From contig CALXMJ010000293.1 of the NCBI GenBank assembly GCA_944389445.1, forward strand, positions 912-64,911: a DNA stretch of 64,000 bases. Reading direction: 5' to 3'. Source of the stretch: an uncultured Victivallales bacterium (lineage in GTDB: Bacteria; Verrucomicrobiota; Lentisphaeria; Victivallales; UBA1829). The notes under the pieces are model-generated. The model saw only the letters and a list, made by a program, of their open reading frames with translations. It was not told the DNA's origin and ran no database searches. Made by a program: the position numbers and the translations under genes. How positions within the stretch are numbered: the stretch's first letter is position 1; every line of letters begins with the position of its first letter. Shown one piece after another: positions 47,912 through 58,919 of the stretch.

Positions 47912-50113
47912 TCAGCGAATCAGGAGACCTGAGGCATCGGCGGAAATTTTCACGGTGCCGCCGTTCTTCAGCTTGCCGAAGAGAATGTCATCGACGATTT
48001 TTGCCGTGATGGCATCGCGGATAAGGCGTTCCATCGGTCGTGCTCCGAGCTTTTCATTGAACCCGTTTTCGGCGAGCCAGTCGGTGGCTTTTTCATCCAC
48101 GGACAGTTTGACTTTTTTCTCGCGGAGAGCATCGCCGGCTTCCCGGAGGAATTTGCCGACAATCAGGCGGATCGACTCGCGGGAGAGCGGGTTGAAATGC
48201 ACGATTCCGTCGAGACGGTTCCGGAATTCGGGCGAAAAGTGTTTTTTTACCGCCGTATCGACACGGGAGGAGGTATCCGACGCGGGTGCGAATCCGATCG
48301 CATGTTCCGAGAGGGATTTTGCTCCGACATTCGAAGTCATGATGACGATTACATTGCGGAAATCCGCTTTGCGCCCGGAATTGTCCGTCATGGCGCCGTA
48401 GTCCATGATCTGGAGCATCAGGTCATAAATTTTCGCATGCGCCTTTTCCATTTCATCGAGGAGCAGGACGCAGTGGGGTTTGCGGAGAATCTGCTCCGTG
48501 AGCAGTCCTCCCTGCTCGAATCCGACGTATCCCGGCGAGGATCCGATCAGTTTTGAGATCGCATACTCTTCGGCGTATTCGCTCATGTCGAAACGAACCA
48601 GTTCGATTCCGAGCGACTCCGCCAGGCGCCGTGCAAGTTCGGTTTTCCCGACACCCGTCGGTCCCGCAAAAAGGAAAGAGCCCACCGGCTTGTTCCGGTT
48701 GCCGAGTCCGGCTCTGGAAATCTTGATCGCCTGGACGACCGCCCGGATGGCGTGGTCCTGTCCGATGACCGTGCGGCGGAGCGCTTCTTCCAGCGCCTTG
48801 AGCCGGGATGCGTCGTCGCCGGAAACCTGAGTCGGCGGCAGGCCGAACATTTCCACGGCCAGGGACTCCACGTAGTCCGATGTGATCCTTTTCTGAGGGG
48901 AGGGCAGCATGGAATTCGCCGCGCCGGCCTCATCCATCAGATCAATTGCCTTGTCGGGCATGAAGCGGTCGAAAATATGGCGGGACGCAAGTTCCACCGC
49001 CCGGTTCAGCGCTTTTTTCTCGTATTTGACGCCGTAATGTTTTTCATAGACGGGTGCGATTCCCTCCAGGATCTTCAGCGTGTCTTCCGGAGAGGGTTCC
49101 GGCACGTCGATTTTCAGGAAGCGGCGCGAAAACGCCTTGTCTTTCAGAATGTGATTGCGATACTCCTCATGCGTGGTTGCACCGATGCAGCGCAGGGAGC
49201 CGTTGTTCAGGGAAGGTTTGAGAATATTCGAAGCATCCAGCGATCCGGCACCGACCGATCCGGCGCCGATCACGGTATGGATTTCGTCGATGAACAGAAC
49301 GGCGTCCGGGATCTGCGAAAGCTCCTTGACGAGCTGTTTCAGACGTTCTTCGAATTGTCCGCGGAACTTTGTTCCGGCGGTCAGCGCCCCCATATCAAGG
49401 GCGAAAATTTTCATATTGCGGAATTTCGGAGGCACTTTTTTCTTCGCGATCCGGACGGCGAGTCCCTCCACGATCGCAGTTTTTCCGACACCCGGTTCTC
49501 CCGCCAGAAGCGGATTGTTCTTTTTCCGCCGGGAAAGCGTGCGCAGAATCGAATGGAGTTCCTTTTCGCGCCCTACAATGAAGTCGATTTTTCCCTCTTT
49601 CGCCATGCGATTGAGATCGACCGCATAAAGTTCCAGTGCGGAATTCTTTGCGAAATCCGGTTCATCCTCTCCCTCCTTCAGTTCCGGATGCGTGACATCC
49701 GTCACATAGTCGATCACTCCCTCATAGTAGATGTCCTGCTCGTGGAGCAAATAGACCGCGTACGACTGCTCTTCGGAAAACAGCGCCACCATGATATCAG
49801 AAATCTCAAGACAATCCCTGCCGGAGGAGAGCACCTGCTGTTCCGCATGGGAAAAAATCCGCATCACGGAAAGCGAGAAGGAGACTTCATCGACTTCCGT
49901 TTTTTCGACTCGTTCCTCGAAAAAGCGATTCAGTTCCCGGCGAATGTATTCCATATCGGCTCCGAGCACACGGAGCATCTCCGACATCGCAGGCACGCCG
50001 CAGAGATACAGAAGCACATGCTCCGGCAGCATGTATTCATGCGACATCTCTTTGGCAAGAGTCCGGAGCCCCTGCAGAAAATCGGCACATTCTCTGGAAA
50101 TGTTCATACTCAT
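47912..50113 (-). CDS. clpA: ATP-dependent Clp protease ATP-binding subunit ClpA
   Basis: Clp_N repeats. Two AAA+ modules with Walker A motifs GEPGVGKTAIVEGLA and FAGPTGVGKTELAR. Immediately downstream of clpS. Confidence 0.95.
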   Translation of the reverse strand: MSMNISRECADFLQGLRTLAKEMSHEYMLPEHVLLYLCGVPAMSEMLRVLGADMEYIRRELNRFFEERVEKTEVDEVSFSLSVMRIFSHAEQQVLSSGRDCLEISDIMVALFSEEQSYAVYLLHEQDIYYEGVIDYVTDVTHPELKEGEDEPDFAKNSALELYAVDLNRMAKEGKIDFIVGREKELHSILRTLSRRKKNNPLLAGEPGVGKTAIVEGLAVRIAKKKVPPKFRNMKIFALDMGALTAGTKFRGQFEERLKQLVKELSQIPDAVLFIDEIHTVIGAGSVGAGSLDASNILKPSLNNGSLRCIGATTHEEYRNHILKDKAFSRRFLKIDVPEPSPEDTLKILEGIAPVYEKHYGVKYEKKALNRAVELASRHIFDRFMPDKAIDLMDEAGAANSMLPSPQKRITSDYVESLAVEMFGLPPTQVSGDDASRLKALEEALRRTVIGQDHAIRAVVQAIKISRAGLGNRNKPVGSFLFAGPTGVGKTELARRLAESLGIELVRFDMSEYAEEYAISKLIGSSPGYVGFEQGGLLTEQILRKPHCVLLLDEMEKAHAKIYDLMLQIMDYGAMTDNSGRKADFRNVIVIMTSNVGAKSLSEHAIGFAPASDTSSRVDTAVKKHFSPEFRNRLDGIVHFNPLSRESIRLIVGKFLREAGDALREKKVKLSVDEKATDWLAENGFNEKLGARPMERLIRDAITAKIVDDILFGKLKNGGTVKISADASGLLIR

Positions 50114-50115
50114 GT

Positions 50116-50424
50116 TCAGTCTTCTTCCATGGTGCAGCGGAGCGGGTATCCGGCGTCGCCCGCCAGTTTGCTTACCTGCGCCACTTTTGTTTCCGCGATC
50201 TCATAGGTATATATTCCGCAAACGGCAGAGCCGTTGTTGTGCACGCTCAGCATGATGCTCTCCGCATCCCCCGGGCTCTTGTGAAAGACGTTTTTCAGAA
50301 CTGCCACCACAAAATCCATCGGCGTATAGTCATCATTTAAAAGAATCACCTTGAACATCGGGGGTTCCGCAAAAGAGACCATTGATTCGGAATCGTCTTC
50401 GTAGCGTTCCCTGGTTGCACCCAT
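50116..50424 (-). CDS. clpS: ATP-dependent Clp protease adaptor ClpS
   Basis: FKVILLNDDYTPMDFVVAVLKNVFHKS matches the ClpS core. Start moved to the ATG at 50424 (GGGAGA RBS). The 21 upstream track codons translate a duplicated terminator hairpin. Confidence 0.9.
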   Translation of the reverse strand: MGATRERYEDDSESMVSFAEPPMFKVILLNDDYTPMDFVVAVLKNVFHKSPGDAESIMLSVHNNGSAVCGIYTYEIAETKVAQVSKLAGDAGYPLRCTMEED

Positions 50425-50437
50425 CACACCATCTCCC

Positions 50438-50533
50438 GGTAAAATTAAGGACCGGAACCATTTCCGGTCCGGCTCTACTAATATCACGGGAAGGGCTCTT
50501 TTACAACGCGATTCGGAAAAATATCACTTGAAT
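50438..50533 (-). repeat. copy 1 of ~90-bp intergenic module (stop-codon context + spacer + hairpin + T-rich run)
   Basis: Aligns with 52690-52783 at roughly 80% identity. One block, ATATCACGGG, is identical 10/10, and the neighbouring blocks match 9/10. Hairpin GGACCGGAA-atgg-TTCCGGTCC followed by TTAATTTT on the minus strand (50441-50470). Confidence 0.8.
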
Positions 50534-50568
50534 TTCTTCCGGAATTTCCCGGCAGAGCGCTTCCGGAC

Positions 50569-52656
50569 TCAGCGGAAGCGTACTTCTGCTGCCGCGGCAG
50601 TCGTTCTGGAATCCGATCCGATTTCGATCCGCCAGCTTCCCGGCTGAAGACATTGCGATCCGTCCTCGAAGGTCAGAAGGAAGGAGTCCGGTTCCACCGC
50701 CAGCTCGACTTTCTGCGACTCCCCGGGCTGCAGAGCGATCCGTTTCACCGCCGCAAGCTGTTTCAACGGAGTCCGGGTCGGCGGACGGATTGCCGAAACA
50801 TAAAGCTGAACCACCGTTTCGCCTGCGCGTGTCCCGGTATTTCGGACAAGGAACTCCGCAGTTACTCCTTTCCCGACAGGGAGCTCTGCCGGAACGGCAA
50901 GTCCGCAATATTCAAACGACGTATAACTCAAGCCGAATCCGAAGGGATGCAGAACGTCTCCGTCGAAGAAGCGGTAGGTACGCCCCTGCATTGCATAGTC
51001 CTCAAACGGCGGCAGATCGTCCGCACTCCGGTAGAACGTTACGGGAAGATGCCCGGAAGGATTGACCTTTCCCGAAAGCACGTTTCCCAATGCCGTTCCG
51101 CCTTCCGCACCGGGATAGAAACATTGAATGACAGCATCTGCCAGTTCTTCGGGAAGCGCCAGCGCACTGCCGGAAACAGAAATCAGAATCACAGGTTTGC
51201 CGAGTGCGGCAATCTTTCCCAGCAGAAGTTTCTGAAGTCCGGGCAGTTCCAGATCGGTCTTGTCTCCGGCAAATTCGGAATTGAACGCGTCTCCGGCTTC
51301 GCCTTCGATCTGCGGATTCAGCCCCAGGCAGAGAATGGAGAGCTCCGCCCGTTCGGCGGCGCCGACCGCTTCGGCGATCCGGTCCTGTTCCTCGGCACAT
51401 CCCTCGGTTTTCGGTGAAACCGGCTCGCATCCGCGCGCATAGATCACACGGCATGTTCCGGGAGCTTCCGCCAGAATTCCTTCCAGAAGCGTCACGGTGC
51501 GGGTCGGCGTTCCGAAATAATTTCCCATGAGAACTTCCCGTGAGTCCGCATTCGGGCCGATCACCGCAACGGATTTGAGCTTGGAAAAGTCCAGCGGCAG
51601 AATTCCGTTCGCATTTTTGAGAAGGATAACGCTTCTGCGCGCCGCCTCCAGCGCCAGCGCCCGGTGTTCATCGCATTCGATGACGTCGCAGGACGGAGCT
51701 TCCGCTGGCGGATCGAAAAAGCCCAGACGGAACTTGAGGCGCAGCTGATTCCTGATCGCGCGGTCAAGTTCCGATTCCGGAATCAATCCCCGTTTCCATG
51801 CCTCCCGAACGCCCTCTTCCCAGTCGGTAATCACATCCACTCCGTTTTTGAGTTCTTCCGCGACTGCGGAAGGATAATCGGAGAAGCGTTTGTGTTCCCG
51901 CACCAGAGCTTCTCCCGCTCCGGCATCCGTGACGACGGCGCCGATGAATCCCCATTCCTTCCGCAGAATTCCATTCAGGAGTCCGGCATTCACGCTGCAC
52001 GGAGTCCCGTTCAGCGCATTGTAGGCGCTCATCACCGACTGCGCTCCCGCCTTGATGCAGGCATGAAACGCCGGCAGATAGGTCTCCCGGAGATCCTTTT
52101 CTGTGACACGGGAATTGAATTTCAGACGGTTCTTTTCCGGTCCGGAATGAGCTGCAAAATGTTTCGGAGCCGTCGCAGCTTTCAGATGATCCGGATCAGA
52201 CCCCTGAACTCCGCGCACGAAAGCCGCACCCATCCGTCCGGTGAGATACGGGCATTCCCCGTAGGTTTCCTGTCCTCTGCCCCAGCGTGGATCACGGAAG
52301 ATGTTCACGTTCGGCGACCAGTAGGTCAACCCCTTGTAGGTGCCGAAATCTCCGTGTTTGACGGAATCGGCATGGCGTGCGCGCCCCTCCAGGGCAATGA
52401 CCTCTCCCATCTTCCCGACCAGTTCGGGGGAAAAGGTCGCCGCCATGGCGATTGCCTGCGGGAAAACGGTTGCCGTACCGCTGCGCGCCAGTCCATGCAG
52501 TGCCTCGTTCCACCAGACATAGGGAGGAATGCCGAGTCGCGGCACGCCTTCATTGCGGTAATTGAGAAAACCGAGTTTTTCATCCACGGTCAATTCCGCC
52601 AGCAGGGCGTCGATTCGCTCTTCCAGCGGAACTTCCGGATTTCTGAATTTTTCCAT
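50569..52656 (-). CDS. glycoside hydrolase family 3 beta-glucosidase/beta-xylosidase, cytoplasmic
   Basis: N-terminal EERIDALLAELTVDEKLGFL and the GH3 nucleophile region WGFIGAVVTDAG. C-terminal Fn3-like domain. No signal peptide. AAGGAG RBS. Confidence 0.9.
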   Translation of the reverse strand: MEKFRNPEVPLEERIDALLAELTVDEKLGFLNYRNEGVPRLGIPPYVWWNEALHGLARSGTATVFPQAIAMAATFSPELVGKMGEVIALEGRARHADSVKHGDFGTYKGLTYWSPNVNIFRDPRWGRGQETYGECPYLTGRMGAAFVRGVQGSDPDHLKAATAPKHFAAHSGPEKNRLKFNSRVTEKDLRETYLPAFHACIKAGAQSVMSAYNALNGTPCSVNAGLLNGILRKEWGFIGAVVTDAGAGEALVREHKRFSDYPSAVAEELKNGVDVITDWEEGVREAWKRGLIPESELDRAIRNQLRLKFRLGFFDPPAEAPSCDVIECDEHRALALEAARRSVILLKNANGILPLDFSKLKSVAVIGPNADSREVLMGNYFGTPTRTVTLLEGILAEAPGTCRVIYARGCEPVSPKTEGCAEEQDRIAEAVGAAERAELSILCLGLNPQIEGEAGDAFNSEFAGDKTDLELPGLQKLLLGKIAALGKPVILISVSGSALALPEELADAVIQCFYPGAEGGTALGNVLSGKVNPSGHLPVTFYRSADDLPPFEDYAMQGRTYRFFDGDVLHPFGFGLSYTSFEYCGLAVPAELPVGKGVTAEFLVRNTGTRAGETVVQLYVSAIRPPTRTPLKQLAAVKRIALQPGESQKVELAVEPDSFLLTFEDGSQCLQPGSWRIEIGSDSRTTAAAAEVRFR

Positions 52657-52689
52657 ATTCCATCCTGCTCCTTATTCCGGACTTTATCA

Positions 52690-52783
52690 GCAAAAAAAGA
52701 GCCGGCACCGTTTCCGGCCCGGCTCTACCAATATCACGGGAAAGGCTTTTTTACAACAGAAAAACGGAAAAGATCACTTGAAA
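52690..52783 (-). repeat. copy 2 of ~90-bp intergenic module; contains the Rho-independent terminator of the NDK-like gene
   Basis: The minus strand reads AGAGCCGGGCCG-GAAA-CGGTGCCGGCTCT followed by TTTTTTT (52691-52726). The module starts within the last codons and the TGA of the NDK-like ORF. Confidence 0.8.
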
Positions 52784-53961
52784 TTTTTCAGGTAATCCTG
52801 AATGATCGCCGCCATGTTGTTGCGTTCGATCTTGATGACTTTCGATTCACGCTCGTAACTTTCCGGGGAATCGGAAGCATGAGCGGTATTGACCATGACA
52901 TCCTGACCGAATTCGCGGCGAATGGTGCCATCCGGAGCTTTGGTCGGATCGGTGGGGCCGAGAACCGTGCGGATTTTGGAAATGGCGTCGGACCCTTCGT
53001 AGATCAGGATCATGCACTTCACTTTGCCGGGAGCGTTCAGTTCCTCGGGAGGGCAGCTGTCGGGACGGACACCGGACATGAACTCGACGATCCGGTTGAA
53101 CTGATCGTCCGCAAATGCAAGCCCGACGGATTTTTCCAGCATGGCGTCGCATTCGTCTCCCATCACGATCTTGTACTGGTTTTCCAGGAGTTCCTTTGCC
53201 TTCTTTCCGATCACCGGTGCAAGTTTTTTGCGGAGCGCCTGCTTGACCGGTCCGTAGAATTCGAGCGCTTCGGCAACGGACATCTGATAGATTTTGCATC
53301 CGACGATCCGCAGACAGGTACGGCTGAACATGTCGATGATGTTGCCGGGTTTCATGCTCGGACGGCGCCAGTTGTCCGGCTTGATGATGACAAGCGTTCT
53401 CTCTCTGCCGTGTTCGTCCTCGTTGCGGACGATGTTGTCCACGATGTTGTCCTCATGCTCAATGAAGTCGGCGATGATTTTCAGGCGCTCAAGACATCCT
53501 TCCAGGTGGGGCGGAGTAAAGACCGCCGGTTCAAAGTAGAGCAGGGAGCCGTCGCGGTTGAAGACCAGATTGCAGTAGGTGTCGCGGATCGTATCGCCGT
53601 AAATATTTTCATGGCGGTTCTTGCTGCTGGGAAGCTGTCCGACTACATGATAAAGTTTTTCACAGGCGTTCTCTCCGCGGAAGAGCAGAAGCATCAGCCG
53701 TTCGCGTCGGCCGTCGTTCAGCGGAGAAAAATTATCCAGGACGTAATCGGAAAGGATTTTTGCCGCGAATTCGTCACGCGATCCTACACGCCGTTTCAAT
53801 GAATCCGCATACGCCTCGGCGAATGCCTTGTCCGGTGTAATCATTCTCGCTGCGACGAGCTCCAGATCCGTTCTCGACAACAGTCTCGCGATAATTCCCC
53901 CGGTACGCGATTTCTTCAACGAATACGGTGTGATCAGCACATAGGAAAGTTCCACTGCCAT
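52774..53961 (-). CDS. tandem nucleoside-diphosphate-kinase-like protein (degenerate N-terminal NDK fold + C-terminal NDK domain with insertion)
   Basis: The second half has RTLVIIKPD, IVEFMSG, GTIRREFG and NTAHASDSPES, which keeps the NDK catalytic His context N-x-x-H-x-SDS. The first half (SYVLITPYS...GDTIRDTY) lacks that His. Start placed at the ATG at 53961 (MAVELSY). Confidence 0.7.
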   Translation of the reverse strand: MAVELSYVLITPYSLKKSRTGGIIARLLSRTDLELVAARMITPDKAFAEAYADSLKRRVGSRDEFAAKILSDYVLDNFSPLNDGRRERLMLLLFRGENACEKLYHVVGQLPSSKNRHENIYGDTIRDTYCNLVFNRDGSLLYFEPAVFTPPHLEGCLERLKIIADFIEHEDNIVDNIVRNEDEHGRERTLVIIKPDNWRRPSMKPGNIIDMFSRTCLRIVGCKIYQMSVAEALEFYGPVKQALRKKLAPVIGKKAKELLENQYKIVMGDECDAMLEKSVGLAFADDQFNRIVEFMSGVRPDSCPPEELNAPGKVKCMILIYEGSDAISKIRTVLGPTDPTKAPDGTIRREFGQDVMVNTAHASDSPESYERESKVIKIERNNMAAIIQDYLKNFK

Positions 53962-54116
53962 GATTTTCTTTGCTCCCTCTTTCTTCTGTTTGCCCGTTCT
54001 CCTTTGCCTGCCGGTCCGTTTTTCAATTCGGAAAACAGCAGATAAATAAAATACCACCGATTTCTAATTTTATCAATCGCTTTCCATTTTTTTCCAACTA
54101 TATTTTTCAAGATTTC

Positions 54117-54145
54117 TTGACGGCCGGGCAATTTTGTGCTATACT
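54117..54145 (+). promoter_or_regulatory. sigma70-type promoter TTGACG-N17-TATACT with TG extended -10
   Basis: TTGACGgccgggcaattttgtgcTATACT, 46 nt upstream of the ATG at 54191. Confidence 0.6.
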
Positions 54146-54178
54146 TTCCTTAATTCAAGAGTTCTGCAATTAAGGAAA
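54145..54178 (+). promoter_or_regulatory. perfect 11-bp inverted repeat spanning the predicted transcription start and the SD-like AAGGAAA
   Basis: TTTCCTTAATT (54145-54155), 12 nt, AATTAAGGAAA (54168-54178). It could be an operator or a 5'-UTR hairpin. Confidence 0.4.
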
Positions 54179-54190
54179 CGGCGTGATACT

Positions 54191-55138
54191 ATGAGCGGTA
54201 AAAATATTCTTGTCACCGGCGGAAGCGGTTTTCTCGGCTCCCATCTCTGCGAGCGGCTTCTGAAGGACGGAAACGATGTCATCTGTGTTGACAATCTTTT
54301 CACAGGAAACAAGCGGAATATTTATCATCTGATGGACAACCGTCATTTTGAGTTTATCCGCCATGATATCACCTTTCCCCTCTATCTGGAAGTCGATGAG
54401 ATTTACAATCTGGCATGTCCCGCGTCTCCGGTCCACTATCAGAAGGATCCCGTTCAGACGGTTAAAACCTGTGTGCATGGAGCGATCAACATGCTCGGCC
54501 TTGCCAAACGGGTCAATGCGAAAATTCTTCAGGCGTCGACTTCCGAGGTTTATGGGGATCCCTATGTCCATCCCCAGGTCGAAGAATACTGGGGCAATGT
54601 GAATCCCATCGGGGAACGTGCCTGCTATGACGAGGGAAAACGTGCCGCGGAAACACTCTTTTCCTCCTATTACAGACAATGCCGTCTCCGCATAAAAATA
54701 GTACGCATTTTCAATACATACGGTCCTAATATGCATCCGAACGACGGACGGGTCGTCAGCAACTTCATTGTGCAGGCTCTCAGAGGGGAAGACATAACAA
54801 TCTACGGCGACGGCACCCAGACCCGCAGCTTTTGCTACTGCACGGATTTGATTGATGCCATGGTCCGCATGATGGCCTCTCCAGACCATGTTACCGGACC
54901 GGTCAATATCGGCAACCCCGGTGAATTCACCATGCTCCAGCTTGCTGAACTTGTCAGGAAAATAACAAATTCCAGTTCGAAAATTGTCTTCCGTCCCCTT
55001 CCGGCGGATGATCCGAAGCAGCGCCGTCCCGACATCTCCAAAGCAAAGGAACTCCTTCACTGGCAGCCGACCACACAGCTCGAAGAAGGACTGAAGTACA
55101 CAATCGATTATTTTGACCGTCTGCTCCGGGAAGCATAA
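54191..55138 (+). CDS. UDP-glucuronate decarboxylase (UDP-xylose synthase)
   Basis: [44 protein letters not shown], catalytic YDEGKR (YxxxK), and high overall resemblance to UXS/ArnA-C-type SDRs. Start moved from 54134. Confidence 0.9.
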
Positions 55139-55866: not shown

Positions 55867-56054
55867 AGGATTCTCCGTTTTTTCTCTCTCATTTGAAAAT
55901 ATAACATGAAAGAGAAGAAAAACAATCTTTGTTTCTCAGGACTTGCCGTTTCCGGCCGGCAACGGCAATCCGGACGCCGGAAACGAAAAAAGAACCATTG
56001 CCTTTTCCCGTTTCCGGATGTAAATTACGAAGATTGATTCAGGAGAAGAAAAGA

Positions 56055-58919
56055 ATGAATGGCGATATTGTAATACGAGGTGCGTCCGAGCACAATCTGA
56101 AGAATATCAATGTCAAAATTCCGCGGAACACGCTGACGGTGATTACCGGCTTGAGCGGATCGGGAAAATCCTCTCTTGCGTTTGATACGCTTTATGCGGA
56201 AGGGCAGCGGCGGTATGTGGAAAGTTTATCCGCTTATGCGCGGCAGTTTTTAGACCGGATGCAGAAGCCGAAGGTGGAACATATTGAGGGCCTTTCCCCG
56301 GCGATTGCGATTGAACAGCGTTCCGCAGGGTCGAATCCGCGGTCCACGGTTGCCACGGTGACGGAAATTTACGACTATCTCCGTCTGCTGTATGCGCATA
56401 CGGGGATCCCGCATTGTCCGAAATGCGGCCGCGAGCTTGCGGCGCAGTCGGCGCAGGCAATCTGCGAGAAGCTGCTTGCGCTGCCGGGCGGACAGAAAAT
56501 GATGATTCTCGCTCCCTATGTCACGGGGCGGAAGGGGGAACACCGGGATGTCCTTGATAAAATCCGCCGCGACGGCTTTATCCGGGCGCGAATCGACGGT
56601 GTTGTTACGGAACTTTCCGATGATATGAAGCCGCTTGGCAAAAATCTCCGTCATGAGATTGATGCTGTTGTAGATCGTCTTGTCACGGGTTCGCTGGAGC
56701 GTTCGCGTCTGAACGATTCCGTGGAGACCGCTCTTTCCTGCGGCGGCGGAGAGCTGATCGTCATGCTGGAAACCCTTTCCGGCGACGGCAAGCGGATCTG
56801 GACCGAGGAACGCATCAGCGAAAAGCTCGCCTGTGTGGACTGCGGCATCAGTTTCGGCAAAATGGAGCCGCGCAATTTCTCGTTCAACAGTCCTTACGGC
56901 GCCTGTCCGCACTGCAACGGACTCGGCACCATGCTTATGATGGATCCGGCTCTTGCAGTCAACGAATCTCTTTCCATCCGCAAGGGAGCGATTCCGGGCT
57001 GGCGGCGCGGACCGCGCCATCTGATCATGTTTTACAACCATCTTCTGAAGTGCATTGCCGCGCATGTGAACATGCCGGATATGACGACGGTTCCCTTCGG
57101 GAAGCTTCCGGAACATGTCCGTAAACTTCTTCTCTACGGCAGCGGCGATGAACCCATCGACTTCAGCTACTACATGCGCGGCAAGCGCTACAACATGGTC
57201 AAACCGTTTGAAGGGATTCTGGCAAACATGCAGAGACGGCAGGCGGAATCCGAAAGCGATGCCGTCCGGGAGCGTCTGAAGGAATACATGACTCAGCGGG
57301 AATGTCCGGTCTGTCACGGGGCCCGTCTCAAGCCGGAGAGTCTTGCCGTAACGGTCGGCGGACTCGGAATCAACCAGTTCAACGCGCTTTCCGTGGAGAA
57401 CGCTCTGGCGTTCATCCGGAACCTGAAGCTGGATGCGGAGCGCAGCGCGATTGCTCGCGACATTGTCAAGGAAATTCAGTCCCGCCTGACCTTTCTGGTC
57501 GATGTGGGGCTGCCCTATCTGACTCTGAACCGCGAGAGCGGGACGCTTTCCGGCGGAGAAGCGCAGCGGATCCGTCTGGCGACTCAGCTCGGCTGCGGGC
57601 TGGTCGGAGTGCTCTACATTCTCGACGAACCCAGCATCGGACTCCATCAGCGGGACAATGACAAGCTTCTTGCGACCCTGAAACGGCTGCGCAATCTCGG
57701 CAATACGGTCATTGTTGTAGAGCATGACATGGATACGATCCGTGCGGCGGACTGTGTGCTCGATCTCGGTCCGCGTGCCGGGGTCCATGGAGGTGAACTG
57801 GTCGCGATCGGTTCGCCGGAGGAGGTCGCGAAAAACCGGGAATCGCTTACCGGCAAGTATCTCTGCGGCGATCGGAAGATCCAGATCCCGGCGGAACGGA
57901 AAAAAGGTACCGGGGAAATCCTTCGCCTGGAAGGTGTTACACATCACAATCTGAAAAATATCACCGTGGATTTTCCTCTTGGCACCTTCCTCTGCGTGAC
58001 AGGAGTCTCCGGATCCGGGAAGAGCAGTCTGGTCAACGGGGTGCTGCGCGCCGTGCTCGAACAGCATTTCAAGATGGCGGATGCCGGTGTTCCCGGCCCC
58101 TACAAAGCGGTCAGGGGGCTGGAATATATTGACAAGGCAATTGTGATCGACCAGAGTCCCATCGGGCGCACCCCGCGTTCGAATCCCGCGACCTACACGG
58201 AAGCGTTCGGCACGATCCGCAATCTGTTCGCCTCTCTGCCCGATTCCAAGGTGCGCGGGTTTGGTCCCGGGCGCTTCAGCTTCAATGTCAAGGGCGGCCG
58301 CTGCGAAGAGTGCCAGGGCGATGGCATCAAGAAGATCGAAATGCAGTTCCTGCCGGATGTTTACGTCACCTGTTCCGCCTGTCACGGTCAGCGTTTCAAC
58401 AAGGAAACACTGAGTGTCCAGTACAAGAAGCGCAGTATTGCCGATGTTCTGGAAATGACGGTCGATGAAGCCGTTGATTTCTTTTCCGCGATTCCCGCGC
58501 TCCACCGCAAGCTCAAGACGCTTCAGGAGGTCGGACTCGGCTACATTACGCTCGGTCAGCCTGCGACCACGCTTTCCGGAGGCGAGGCTCAGCGCGTAAA
58601 GCTCGCCACGGAACTCGCAAAAACGCCGCGCGGACATACCGTCTACATTCTTGACGAGCCGACTACGGGTCTTCATCTGGAGGACATCAGGCAACTGCTG
58701 GATGTGCTGATGCGTCTGCGCGACAAGGGCAGTACAATCATCGTGATCGAACACAATCTCGACGTCATCAAGATGGCGGATTACATTATTGACATCGGTC
58801 CTGAAGGCGGCGATGCCGGCGGAAGGATCATTGCCAGAGGCACACCGGAGGAGATCATAAAGGTCAAGGCCTCTCATACGGGGCGCTATCTGAAGGAGAT
58901 ACTGGAAAAGGATCTCTGA
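56055..58919 (+). CDS. uvrA: excinuclease ABC subunit A
   Basis: [55 protein letters not shown], zinc-finger cysteines, second ABC module [11 protein letters not shown]. Start moved from 55929. Confidence 0.97.

Follow-up and report, generated by a model that had tools for sequence, protein, structure and literature searches.

A GH3 gene of a gut Victivallales bacterium, probably inserted between NDK and clpS with duplication of a terminator and promoter-like region

The 64-kb stretch of DNA analyzed here (the window, part of contig CALXMJ010000293.1) belongs to a gut Victivallales (Lentisphaerota) bacterium, a placement based on its NDK protein. Its minus strand carries, in this order, a long NDK-like gene (NDK), a gene for a GH3 glycoside hydrolase (GH3), and the genes clpS and clpA. 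GH3 is bracketed by two direct copies of one segment, copy 2 on the NDK side and copy 1 on the clpS side; the intergenic part of this segment is called the module below. We consider it probable that GH3 was inserted into an older junction between NDK and clpS, and that the insertion duplicated a compact segment, best read as an intrinsic terminator that has an extended -10 promoter inside it. The coordinates of the features are collected in Table 1.

In the ungapped alignment, positions 50442-50542 match positions 52692-52792 over 101 nucleotides (nt) with 78% identity. The gapped local alignment of the two copies has 107 columns, 86 of them identical (80%), and a score of 102; 1000 dinucleotide-preserving shuffles gave a mean of 16.8, a standard deviation of 2.4, and a maximum of 29, which places the repeat at z = 35. 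A 22-nt core, searched for with up to three mismatches, is found in the 64-kb window only at these two sites, the chance expectation being 0.

The start of copy 2 falls within the final codons of NDK (..KNFK-TGA), whose stop codon is at 52776-52774. Copy 1 opens with a decayed version of the same tail, GAAGAAATTCAAGTGA (50539-50524), to which no open reading frame (ORF) is attached. This relic starts 29 nt past the GH3 stop codon, and its own TGA ends 45 nt past that stop codon. In shuffle-tested local alignments, the relic matches the 3' end of NDK with z = 4-5 in the window and z = 9-10 in the related locus L003. A longer relic of ~55 nt was hinted at by MAFFT in L003; the shuffle-tested alignment backs only 16-22 nt. 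The duplicated unit comprises ~105 bp, with the last 16-22 nt of the NDK coding sequence and the stop codon as its 5' end, and its other end coincides with that of the terminator T-run. Since host coding sequence is part of the unit, what was copied is a chromosomal segment and not a discrete element.

The arrangement of this locus was compared across 80 loci, one genome per species, together with contigs from exact-protein look-ups, and each locus was typed by tblastn. Three of these loci (L001, L002, and L003), from sister species, are filled sites, with the order NDK-GH3-clpS-clpA and both module copies. A metagenome fragment (L114) represents the same locus in the filled state; it carries copy 1, the only junction that its contig reaches. 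The junctions between NDK and clpS without GH3 that the ancestral arrangement calls for were found in two independent outgroup lineages, L004/L145 and L143/L144. At these empty sites, NDK is followed by a single module of ~85 nt and then by clpS, with no GH3. The left flank of this single module is an intact NDK 3' end, matching the left flank of copy 2, and the sequence on its right, TTTTACCGGGAGATG..ATGGG, agrees with that to the right of copy 1. Such a combination of flanks around one module is characteristic of an insertion by which the segment was duplicated.

Five further loci (L005-L007, L082, and L146), in which NDK is 87-89% identical, have neither module nor GH3; in these, clpS starts ~4-17 nt past the NDK stop codon. 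In more distant genomes, NDK is not adjacent to clpS. In L083 (NDK 88% identical), an unannotated ORF of 149 amino acids (aa) with a hydrophobic N-terminus follows NDK instead of clpS; the linkage between NDK and clpS was therefore broken at least once within the 88% group.

We calculated a neighbor-joining tree for ClpA with 500 bootstrap replicates; this is a single-gene tree. The sequences from the window, L002, and L003, all with GH3, form a clade with 100% bootstrap support. These three together with L004 and L143, that is, the sequences with a module, are separated from the module-less outgroups, again with 100% support, and L004 and L143 are separate lineages. The first-pass annotation of this DNA had proposed an ancestral order of NDK, terminator, clpS, and clpA into which GH3 was inserted with duplication of the junction. 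The empty sites, their flanks, and the nesting of the GH3 clade within the module clade all agree with this proposal.

Across species, the copies cluster by position, copy 1 with copy 1 and copy 2 with copy 2. The identities are 0.70-0.90 among copies 1, 0.86-0.93 among copies 2, and 0.60-0.82 between copy 1 and copy 2; the copy-2 orthologues in L001/L002 and L003 are 86-93% identical to copy 2 of the window. This orthologous clustering places the duplication before the species splits and indicates that the copies were not homogenized. Concerted evolution between the copies was considered and rejected, as the identity matrix shows orthologous clustering instead.

Between the same species, the identity at four-fold degenerate sites of the flanking genes is no more than 54-70%, and a 100-nt repeat of such age, if free of constraint, should hardly be recognizable any longer. 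The substitutions are distributed unevenly along the module: the number of changes per site is 0.17 in TTG(T/G)AA, 0.44 in TGnTATTnn (nearly all in its last two bases), and 0.20 in the TAGAG that comes next, versus 1.21 in the 13-14 nt between the blocks and 1.14 in the stretch after the stop codon. The spacer between the hexamers evolves about as fast as the unconstrained stretch past the stop codon. The two copies are still ~80% alike because both are under purifying selection. Judged by these rates, the module shows constraint after the duplication, with the NDK relic and the non-motif spacers decayed.

Copy 2 folds into a hairpin (52726-52698) of 12 pairs with a GAAA loop and -21.8 kcal/mol, which is followed by T7 (52698-52692). 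The hairpin of copy 1, GGACCGGAA-ATGG-TTCCGGTCC, lies at 50470-50449 and has -17.8 kcal/mol; its T tail, TTAATTTT (50448-50441), is interrupted, and corresponds only partly to the uninterrupted U-run by which intrinsic terminators are recognized. All eight distinct copies of the module have a hairpin with -16.7 to -21.8 kcal/mol and a T-rich tail after it. The run of T is unbroken (5-8 T) in six of the eight, and interrupted in copy 1 of the window and in L143 (TTATTTTTTT). In copy 1 of L002, the stem was kept through a compensatory double change (GGACAGG/CCTGTCC versus GGACCGG/CCGGTCC). In an RNAalifold analysis of the eight copies, the terminator hairpin was the sole conserved structure.

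As in intrinsic terminators, a GC-rich stem of 9-12 pairs, a tetraloop, and a T-run are located 50-75 nt past a stop codon, and this holds in all eight copies. The hairpin with its T-run is therefore a predicted intrinsic terminator, which would serve NDK in copy 2 and GH3 in copy 1. Unlike in typical intrinsic terminators, the hairpin is located ~4-20 nt from the next ribosome-binding site (RBS) and directly downstream of a promoter-like footprint. From this position, it would also be part of the leader of the downstream gene.

These features had largely been recognized in the first-pass annotation: the repeat of roughly 80% identity; a copy 2 that begins in the last NDK codons and holds a 12-bp stem, a GAAA loop, and T7; a copy 1 with a mutated stop context lacking an ORF, a remodelled hairpin, and a degraded T-run; and in each copy a TTGTAA-N17-TATT(A/G)G string (50506-50478 and 52756-52728, on the minus strand, which is the coding strand of all genes considered here). 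All of these read as described. The distance of ~25 nt given between the copy-1 hairpin and the clpS RBS needs correction, since the Shine-Dalgarno sequence (SD) is ~12 nt away and ~25 nt is the distance to the ATG at 50424.

The two conserved blocks upstream of each hairpin look like an extended -10 promoter of the sigma-70 type. In copy 2, TTGTAA (52756-52751) and TATTGG (52733-52728) are separated by a 17-nt spacer, with TG at 52736-52735; in copy 1, TTGTAA (50506-50501) and TATTAG (50483-50478) are again 17 nt apart, with TG at 50486-50485. The pattern TTG(T/G)AA-N16/17-TGnTATTnn is nearly invariant over the eight copies; seven copies have 17 nt between the hexamers and the eighth has 16 nt, and A at -11 is present in every copy. 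The resemblance is to the class with TGnTATAAT and a weak -35 element: TTG(T/G)AA, a spacer of 16-17 nt, and TGn followed by TATTnn, the hexamers being conserved and the spacer variable.

The T-run of copy 2 is only ~20 nt from the GH3 RBS (AAGGAG, 52673-52668), and the T tail of copy 1 is ~4 nt from the clpS SD (GGGAGA, 50437-50432). With so little room, transcription of GH3 and clpS-clpA must either start within the module or reach them by read-through. No recognizable promoter of its own was seen for GH3. Read-through from NDK aside, the footprint in copy 2 is, from its position, the only place where a GH3 promoter could be. The suggestion that the module acts as a combined terminator and promoter gains support from the blockwise conservation.

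NDK itself has a predicted promoter of similar style, TTGATA-N17-TAT(T/C)TT, which is conserved even in the outgroups. It is located at about 54048-54076 on the minus strand, and ~90 nt separate it from the NDK ATG at 53961. It is directly followed by a hairpin in the 5' untranslated region (UTR), CTGCTG...CCGGCAG, whose inner stem apparently varies by compensatory substitutions between species. A promoter-like element with an immediate stem-loop thus occurs at a second place in this locus.

The history that we propose starts from a deep ancestor in which a long NDK would have been adjacent to clpS-clpA, probably within one operon. The distribution of the module shows that it was gained in the ancestor of the five sampled lineages, as ~85 nt between NDK and clpS that would consist of an extended -10 sigma-70-type promoter footprint and, immediately after it, a GC-rich hairpin with a T-run. 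As its distribution shows, GH3 came later, on the branch that the window species shares with its two or three sister species; it was inserted right after the T-run as an ORF that had its RBS but no promoter. The same event duplicated ~105 bp, comprising the last 16-22 nt of NDK, the stop codon, and the whole module, so that the duplicate came to lie on the far side of the insert. Both copies have evolved independently, under purifying selection, since before the species split. At present, copy 2 would end NDK transcription and host any GH3 promoter, and copy 1 would end GH3 transcription and keep the clpS-clpA promoter and leader. Duplication of the cassette would in this way have given the promoterless GH3 a terminator and possibly a promoter, and left clpS-clpA with its original promoter and leader.

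Orthologues of GH3 (loci L137-L142; 74-79% identical) are found in four other unrelated contexts: beside a methyltransferase; in a GH127/GH123/GH172 cluster; beside a GDSL lipase; and in a GH92/GH130 cluster, downstream of which lie IS66 and integrase fragments. GH3 evidently relocated repeatedly. The nucleotide homology between GH3 of the window and these orthologues is confined to the stretch from 15 nt before the ATG to about 30 nt before the stop codon, so the insert is essentially the ORF with its RBS. L137 and L138 share a region of ~85 nt upstream of the gene with a TTGACA box; the copy in the window lacks this region.

The duplication could have arisen through single-crossover integration of a circle that carried a homologous segment, or through a template switch at the hairpin during replication, which is an equally good candidate. 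In Campbell-type (single-crossover) integration, or insertion-duplication, as known from suicide-vector integrants and some natural integrations, an insert lies between two direct copies of a segment that is single in the empty site. The locus described here has the same arrangement, and its repeat is ~100 bp of ordinary chromosomal sequence and not the end of an element. It differs from such integrations in that there is no sign of a vector, an integrase, or a circular donor, the insert being essentially one ORF with its RBS, and in that the repeats are old (~80% identical) and were kept by selection and not resolved by recombination. The junctions of the insert are too diverged for microhomology to be read from them. 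Taken as an event, this is insertion-duplication of an ordinary intergenic terminator/promoter region, which is of a known kind and involves no new element or mechanism.

Several observations weigh against this reading. The T at position -7 of the -10 hexamer is normally critical, and it is absent from both copies in the window (TATTAG and TATTGG) and from seven of the eight distinct copies overall, in departure from the extended -10 consensus; the canonical TATTTT is present in L143 only. A scan with the consensus promoter did not call the hexamers of the window. Were transcription to start ~7 nt past the hexamer, the hairpin and U-run would be at the extreme 5' end of the transcript, which might terminate that same transcript. 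Stem-loops at the 5' end are known to stabilize mRNA, and a hairpin in this position might attenuate or stabilize. The constant spacing of the hexamers is weak evidence, as indels are rare at this divergence, and both terminator activity and promoter activity of the module are predictions from sequence. The donor sequence was not found: the GH3 orthologues elsewhere share no flank beyond 15 nt upstream of the ATG. An nhmmer profile built from seven copies detected no further copy in the 64-kb window and 1.05 Mb of loci (83 related loci); as a test of dispersal this has limited power, with only about 120 kb of the clade's own DNA covered.

Alternatively, the module could be a leaky terminator only, GH3 and clpS-clpA being expressed by read-through from the NDK promoter; the conservation upstream of the hairpin would then aid termination or be too young to have decayed. 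In the deeper relatives, the gap between NDK and clpS is about 4-17 nt, which implies co-transcription, and the weakened T tail of copy 1 in the window (TTAATTTT) is consistent with tuned read-through. Nevertheless, the spacers between the conserved blocks have diverged to a near-neutral level, so there was time enough for decay, and we know of no need of intrinsic terminators for a specific sequence 20-50 nt upstream of the hairpin. We regard this explanation as unlikely.

The conserved blocks might instead act as RNA, either as a small RNA (sRNA) derived from the 3' UTR of the NDK or GH3 mRNA, with the seed GUGAUAUURGUAGAG, or as a protein- or RNA-binding leader of clpS-clpA. A near-invariant block of 15 nt does lie directly 5' of the Rho-independent terminator, which is the usual layout of sRNAs from 3' UTRs, and the -10-like hexamer is poor in the window. 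However, the conservation falls into two blocks of 6 nt and 9 nt around a fast-evolving spacer of fixed length, as is fitting for TTGnnn and TGnTAnnn; there is no conserved structure beyond the hairpin and no Rfam match; and GH3 and clpS would have no other place for a promoter. A role at the RNA level is, on this evidence, decidedly unlikely. The Rfam search, made with a permissive E-value over 49500-54500, returned chance matches only (mir-56, L31 leader, and snoRNA; E = 3-7), well below gathering scores. The attenuator suggested in the first-pass annotation found no support, with the terminator hairpin as the only conserved structure; a riboswitch or attenuator was likewise rejected because RNAalifold on the eight copies revealed no conserved alternative pairing and no Rfam match was better than E = 3.

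A bolder version of the insertion would make the duplication a functional design and no incidental scar, with the self-contained ~85-nt terminator-promoter cassette as a landing pad; its hairpin would trigger template switching or recombination, by which a bare ORF is inserted and a cassette is restored on either side of it. If this were true, an incoming gene would have insulation and expression from the start, without loss of the promoter of the downstream operon; if it were general, it would be a transposase-free route of single-gene gain at terminators. We give this idea little credence. A general hairpin-targeted mobility of GH3 was rejected: its four other contexts have no flanking repeats (z below 1.5) and no module.

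Less credible still is the reverse order of events, in which GH3 with two modules is the older state and the empty sites arose through recombination between the repeats that deleted GH3. Direct repeats of ~100 bp can mediate deletions, and the product would equal the observed single module. Moreover, the single module of L004 is copy-1-like at a few diagnostic positions (TATTAG, GAAGAA), and its left flank is an intact NDK. Yet this scenario needs one insertion and two independent deletions where one insertion would otherwise do; L004 and L143 branch separately from each other and outside the GH3 clade with its 100% support, and the deeper outgroups have no GH3 at this site. The copy-1-like states in L004 and L143 are equally well explained as ancestral states that were later changed in copy 2.

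That the module is a small mobile or dispersed element, comparable to a repetitive extragenic palindromic (REP) sequence, a miniature inverted-repeat transposable element (MITE), or a terminator cassette, and landed independently on either side of GH3, we find scarcely believable: the module is compact, hairpin-containing, and intergenic, and the ancestor of five lineages gained it de novo at the junction of NDK and clpS, but copy 1 carries 16-22 nt of NDK coding relic, which marks a copied chromosomal segment, and profile, core-pattern, plasmid, and phage searches gave no extra copies in the sequence that they covered. The small mobile intergenic element that the first-pass annotation had offered as its second possibility is thus not borne out in the window, the ~1.05 Mb of loci, the core scans, or the plasmid and phage collections. 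A 19-nt core pattern had 45 matches in metagenome contigs and 8 in viral contigs, and the full module was present only in L114, the same locus; the remaining matches cover the seeded core or a short stretch around it, have no common flanking genes, and were taken as chance. BLASTN of the plasmid and phage collections gave no match to the module.

The direct repeats around an insert recall the target-site duplications of transposons, and the short, intergenic, hairpin-containing module recalls REP and MITE sequences. In contrast to target-site duplications, typically 2-15 bp long, the repeat comprises ~105 bp and includes host coding sequence, and no transposase is nearby; in contrast to REP and MITE sequences, the module lacks inverted repeats at its ends and, in the sequence searched, is not dispersed. 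The ends of the module showed no terminal inverted repeats, the unit running from inside the NDK coding sequence to the T-run, and no transposase was present near the module among the called neighborhoods (L001, L143, and L145). An integron cassette with an attC site was rejected, as the candidate GTTGTAA does not fit GTTRRRY (attC core RYYYAAC ... GTTRRRY). No integron integrase was found among the called genes of L001, L143, and L145; the scan for integrases did not extend to the rest of the window.

Insertion of GH3 with duplication of the junction remains the reading that we prefer, and Table 1 lists the features concerned. The gene order continues beyond clpA with an OmpR-type response regulator and a histidine kinase, and every gene concerned is on the minus strand.

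Table 1. Genes and repeat-associated features at the NDK-GH3-clpS-clpA locus (window coordinates).
Feature	Coordinates	Strand	Basis
NDK-like gene, 395 aa	52774..53961	-	Pfam NDK, E = 7.9e-31, two stretches
Copy 2 of the duplicated unit (NDK tail with stop codon, then intergenic module)	52692..52792	-	
Promoter-like footprint of copy 2	52728..52756	-	Read directly; hexamers and spacing kept across 8 copies
Predicted intrinsic terminator of NDK (copy 2)	52692..52726	-	Folding; kept in all orthologues
GH3 glycoside hydrolase gene, 695 aa	50569..52656	-	Pfam Glyco_hydro_3, Glyco_hydro_3_C, Fn3-like
Copy 1 of the duplicated unit (decayed NDK-tail relic, then module)	50442..50542	-	
Promoter-like footprint of copy 1, candidate clpS-clpA promoter	50478..50506	-	Read directly; kept in L002, L003, L004, L143
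Hairpin and T tail of copy 1, predicted GH3 terminator, within the clpS 5' leader	50441..50470	-	Folding
clpS, 102 aa	50116..50424	-	Pfam ClpS, E = 3.8e-35
clpA, 733 aa	47912..50113	-	Pfam AAA_2, AAA, ClpB_D2-small

The start codon of clpS was chosen by comparison with the called orthologues. The clpS frame remains open beyond this codon, across the entire copy-1 hairpin as far as a GTG at 50487 (50116-50487), and the mechanical ORF call gives 123 aa; according to the orthologues, the true start is the ATG at 50424.

The NDK of 395 aa is an unusual form, which matches Pfam NDK in two separate stretches. Its conservation extends, with 51-99% identity, across Lentisphaerota and metagenome-assembled genomes labelled Spirochaetia, Kiritimatiellota, and Planctomycetota (loci L002-L081). 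The orthologues in the sister species are 97-99% identical, and this identity is found among species whose neighboring proteins share only 55-95%.

Another direct repeat in the window, of 45 nt (56078-56122 versus 57932-57976; 71% identical), is located inside uvrA (55929-58919, plus strand; Pfam UvrA_inter, UvrA_DNA-bind, and ABC_tran). The homology between the two ABC ATPase halves of UvrA, and not mobility, is the probable reason for this repeat.

The empty, the filled, and the deeper ancestral states of this locus are all still sampled, and the order of events is therefore firm: an operon, the gain of the module, and the insertion of a single gene with duplication of the module. A search of the literature for promoter rules in Lentisphaerae returned nothing relevant, and to our knowledge promoter and terminator rules are unstudied throughout the phylum Lentisphaerota. 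The two paralogous copies of the module provide an internal control, in which ~25 of the ~85 intergenic positions are constrained, and the case is mildly instructive for the promoter and terminator rules of this phylum. It also illustrates how a gene acquired without a promoter can come to be expressed and insulated while an essential neighbor, clpS-clpA, is left undisturbed.

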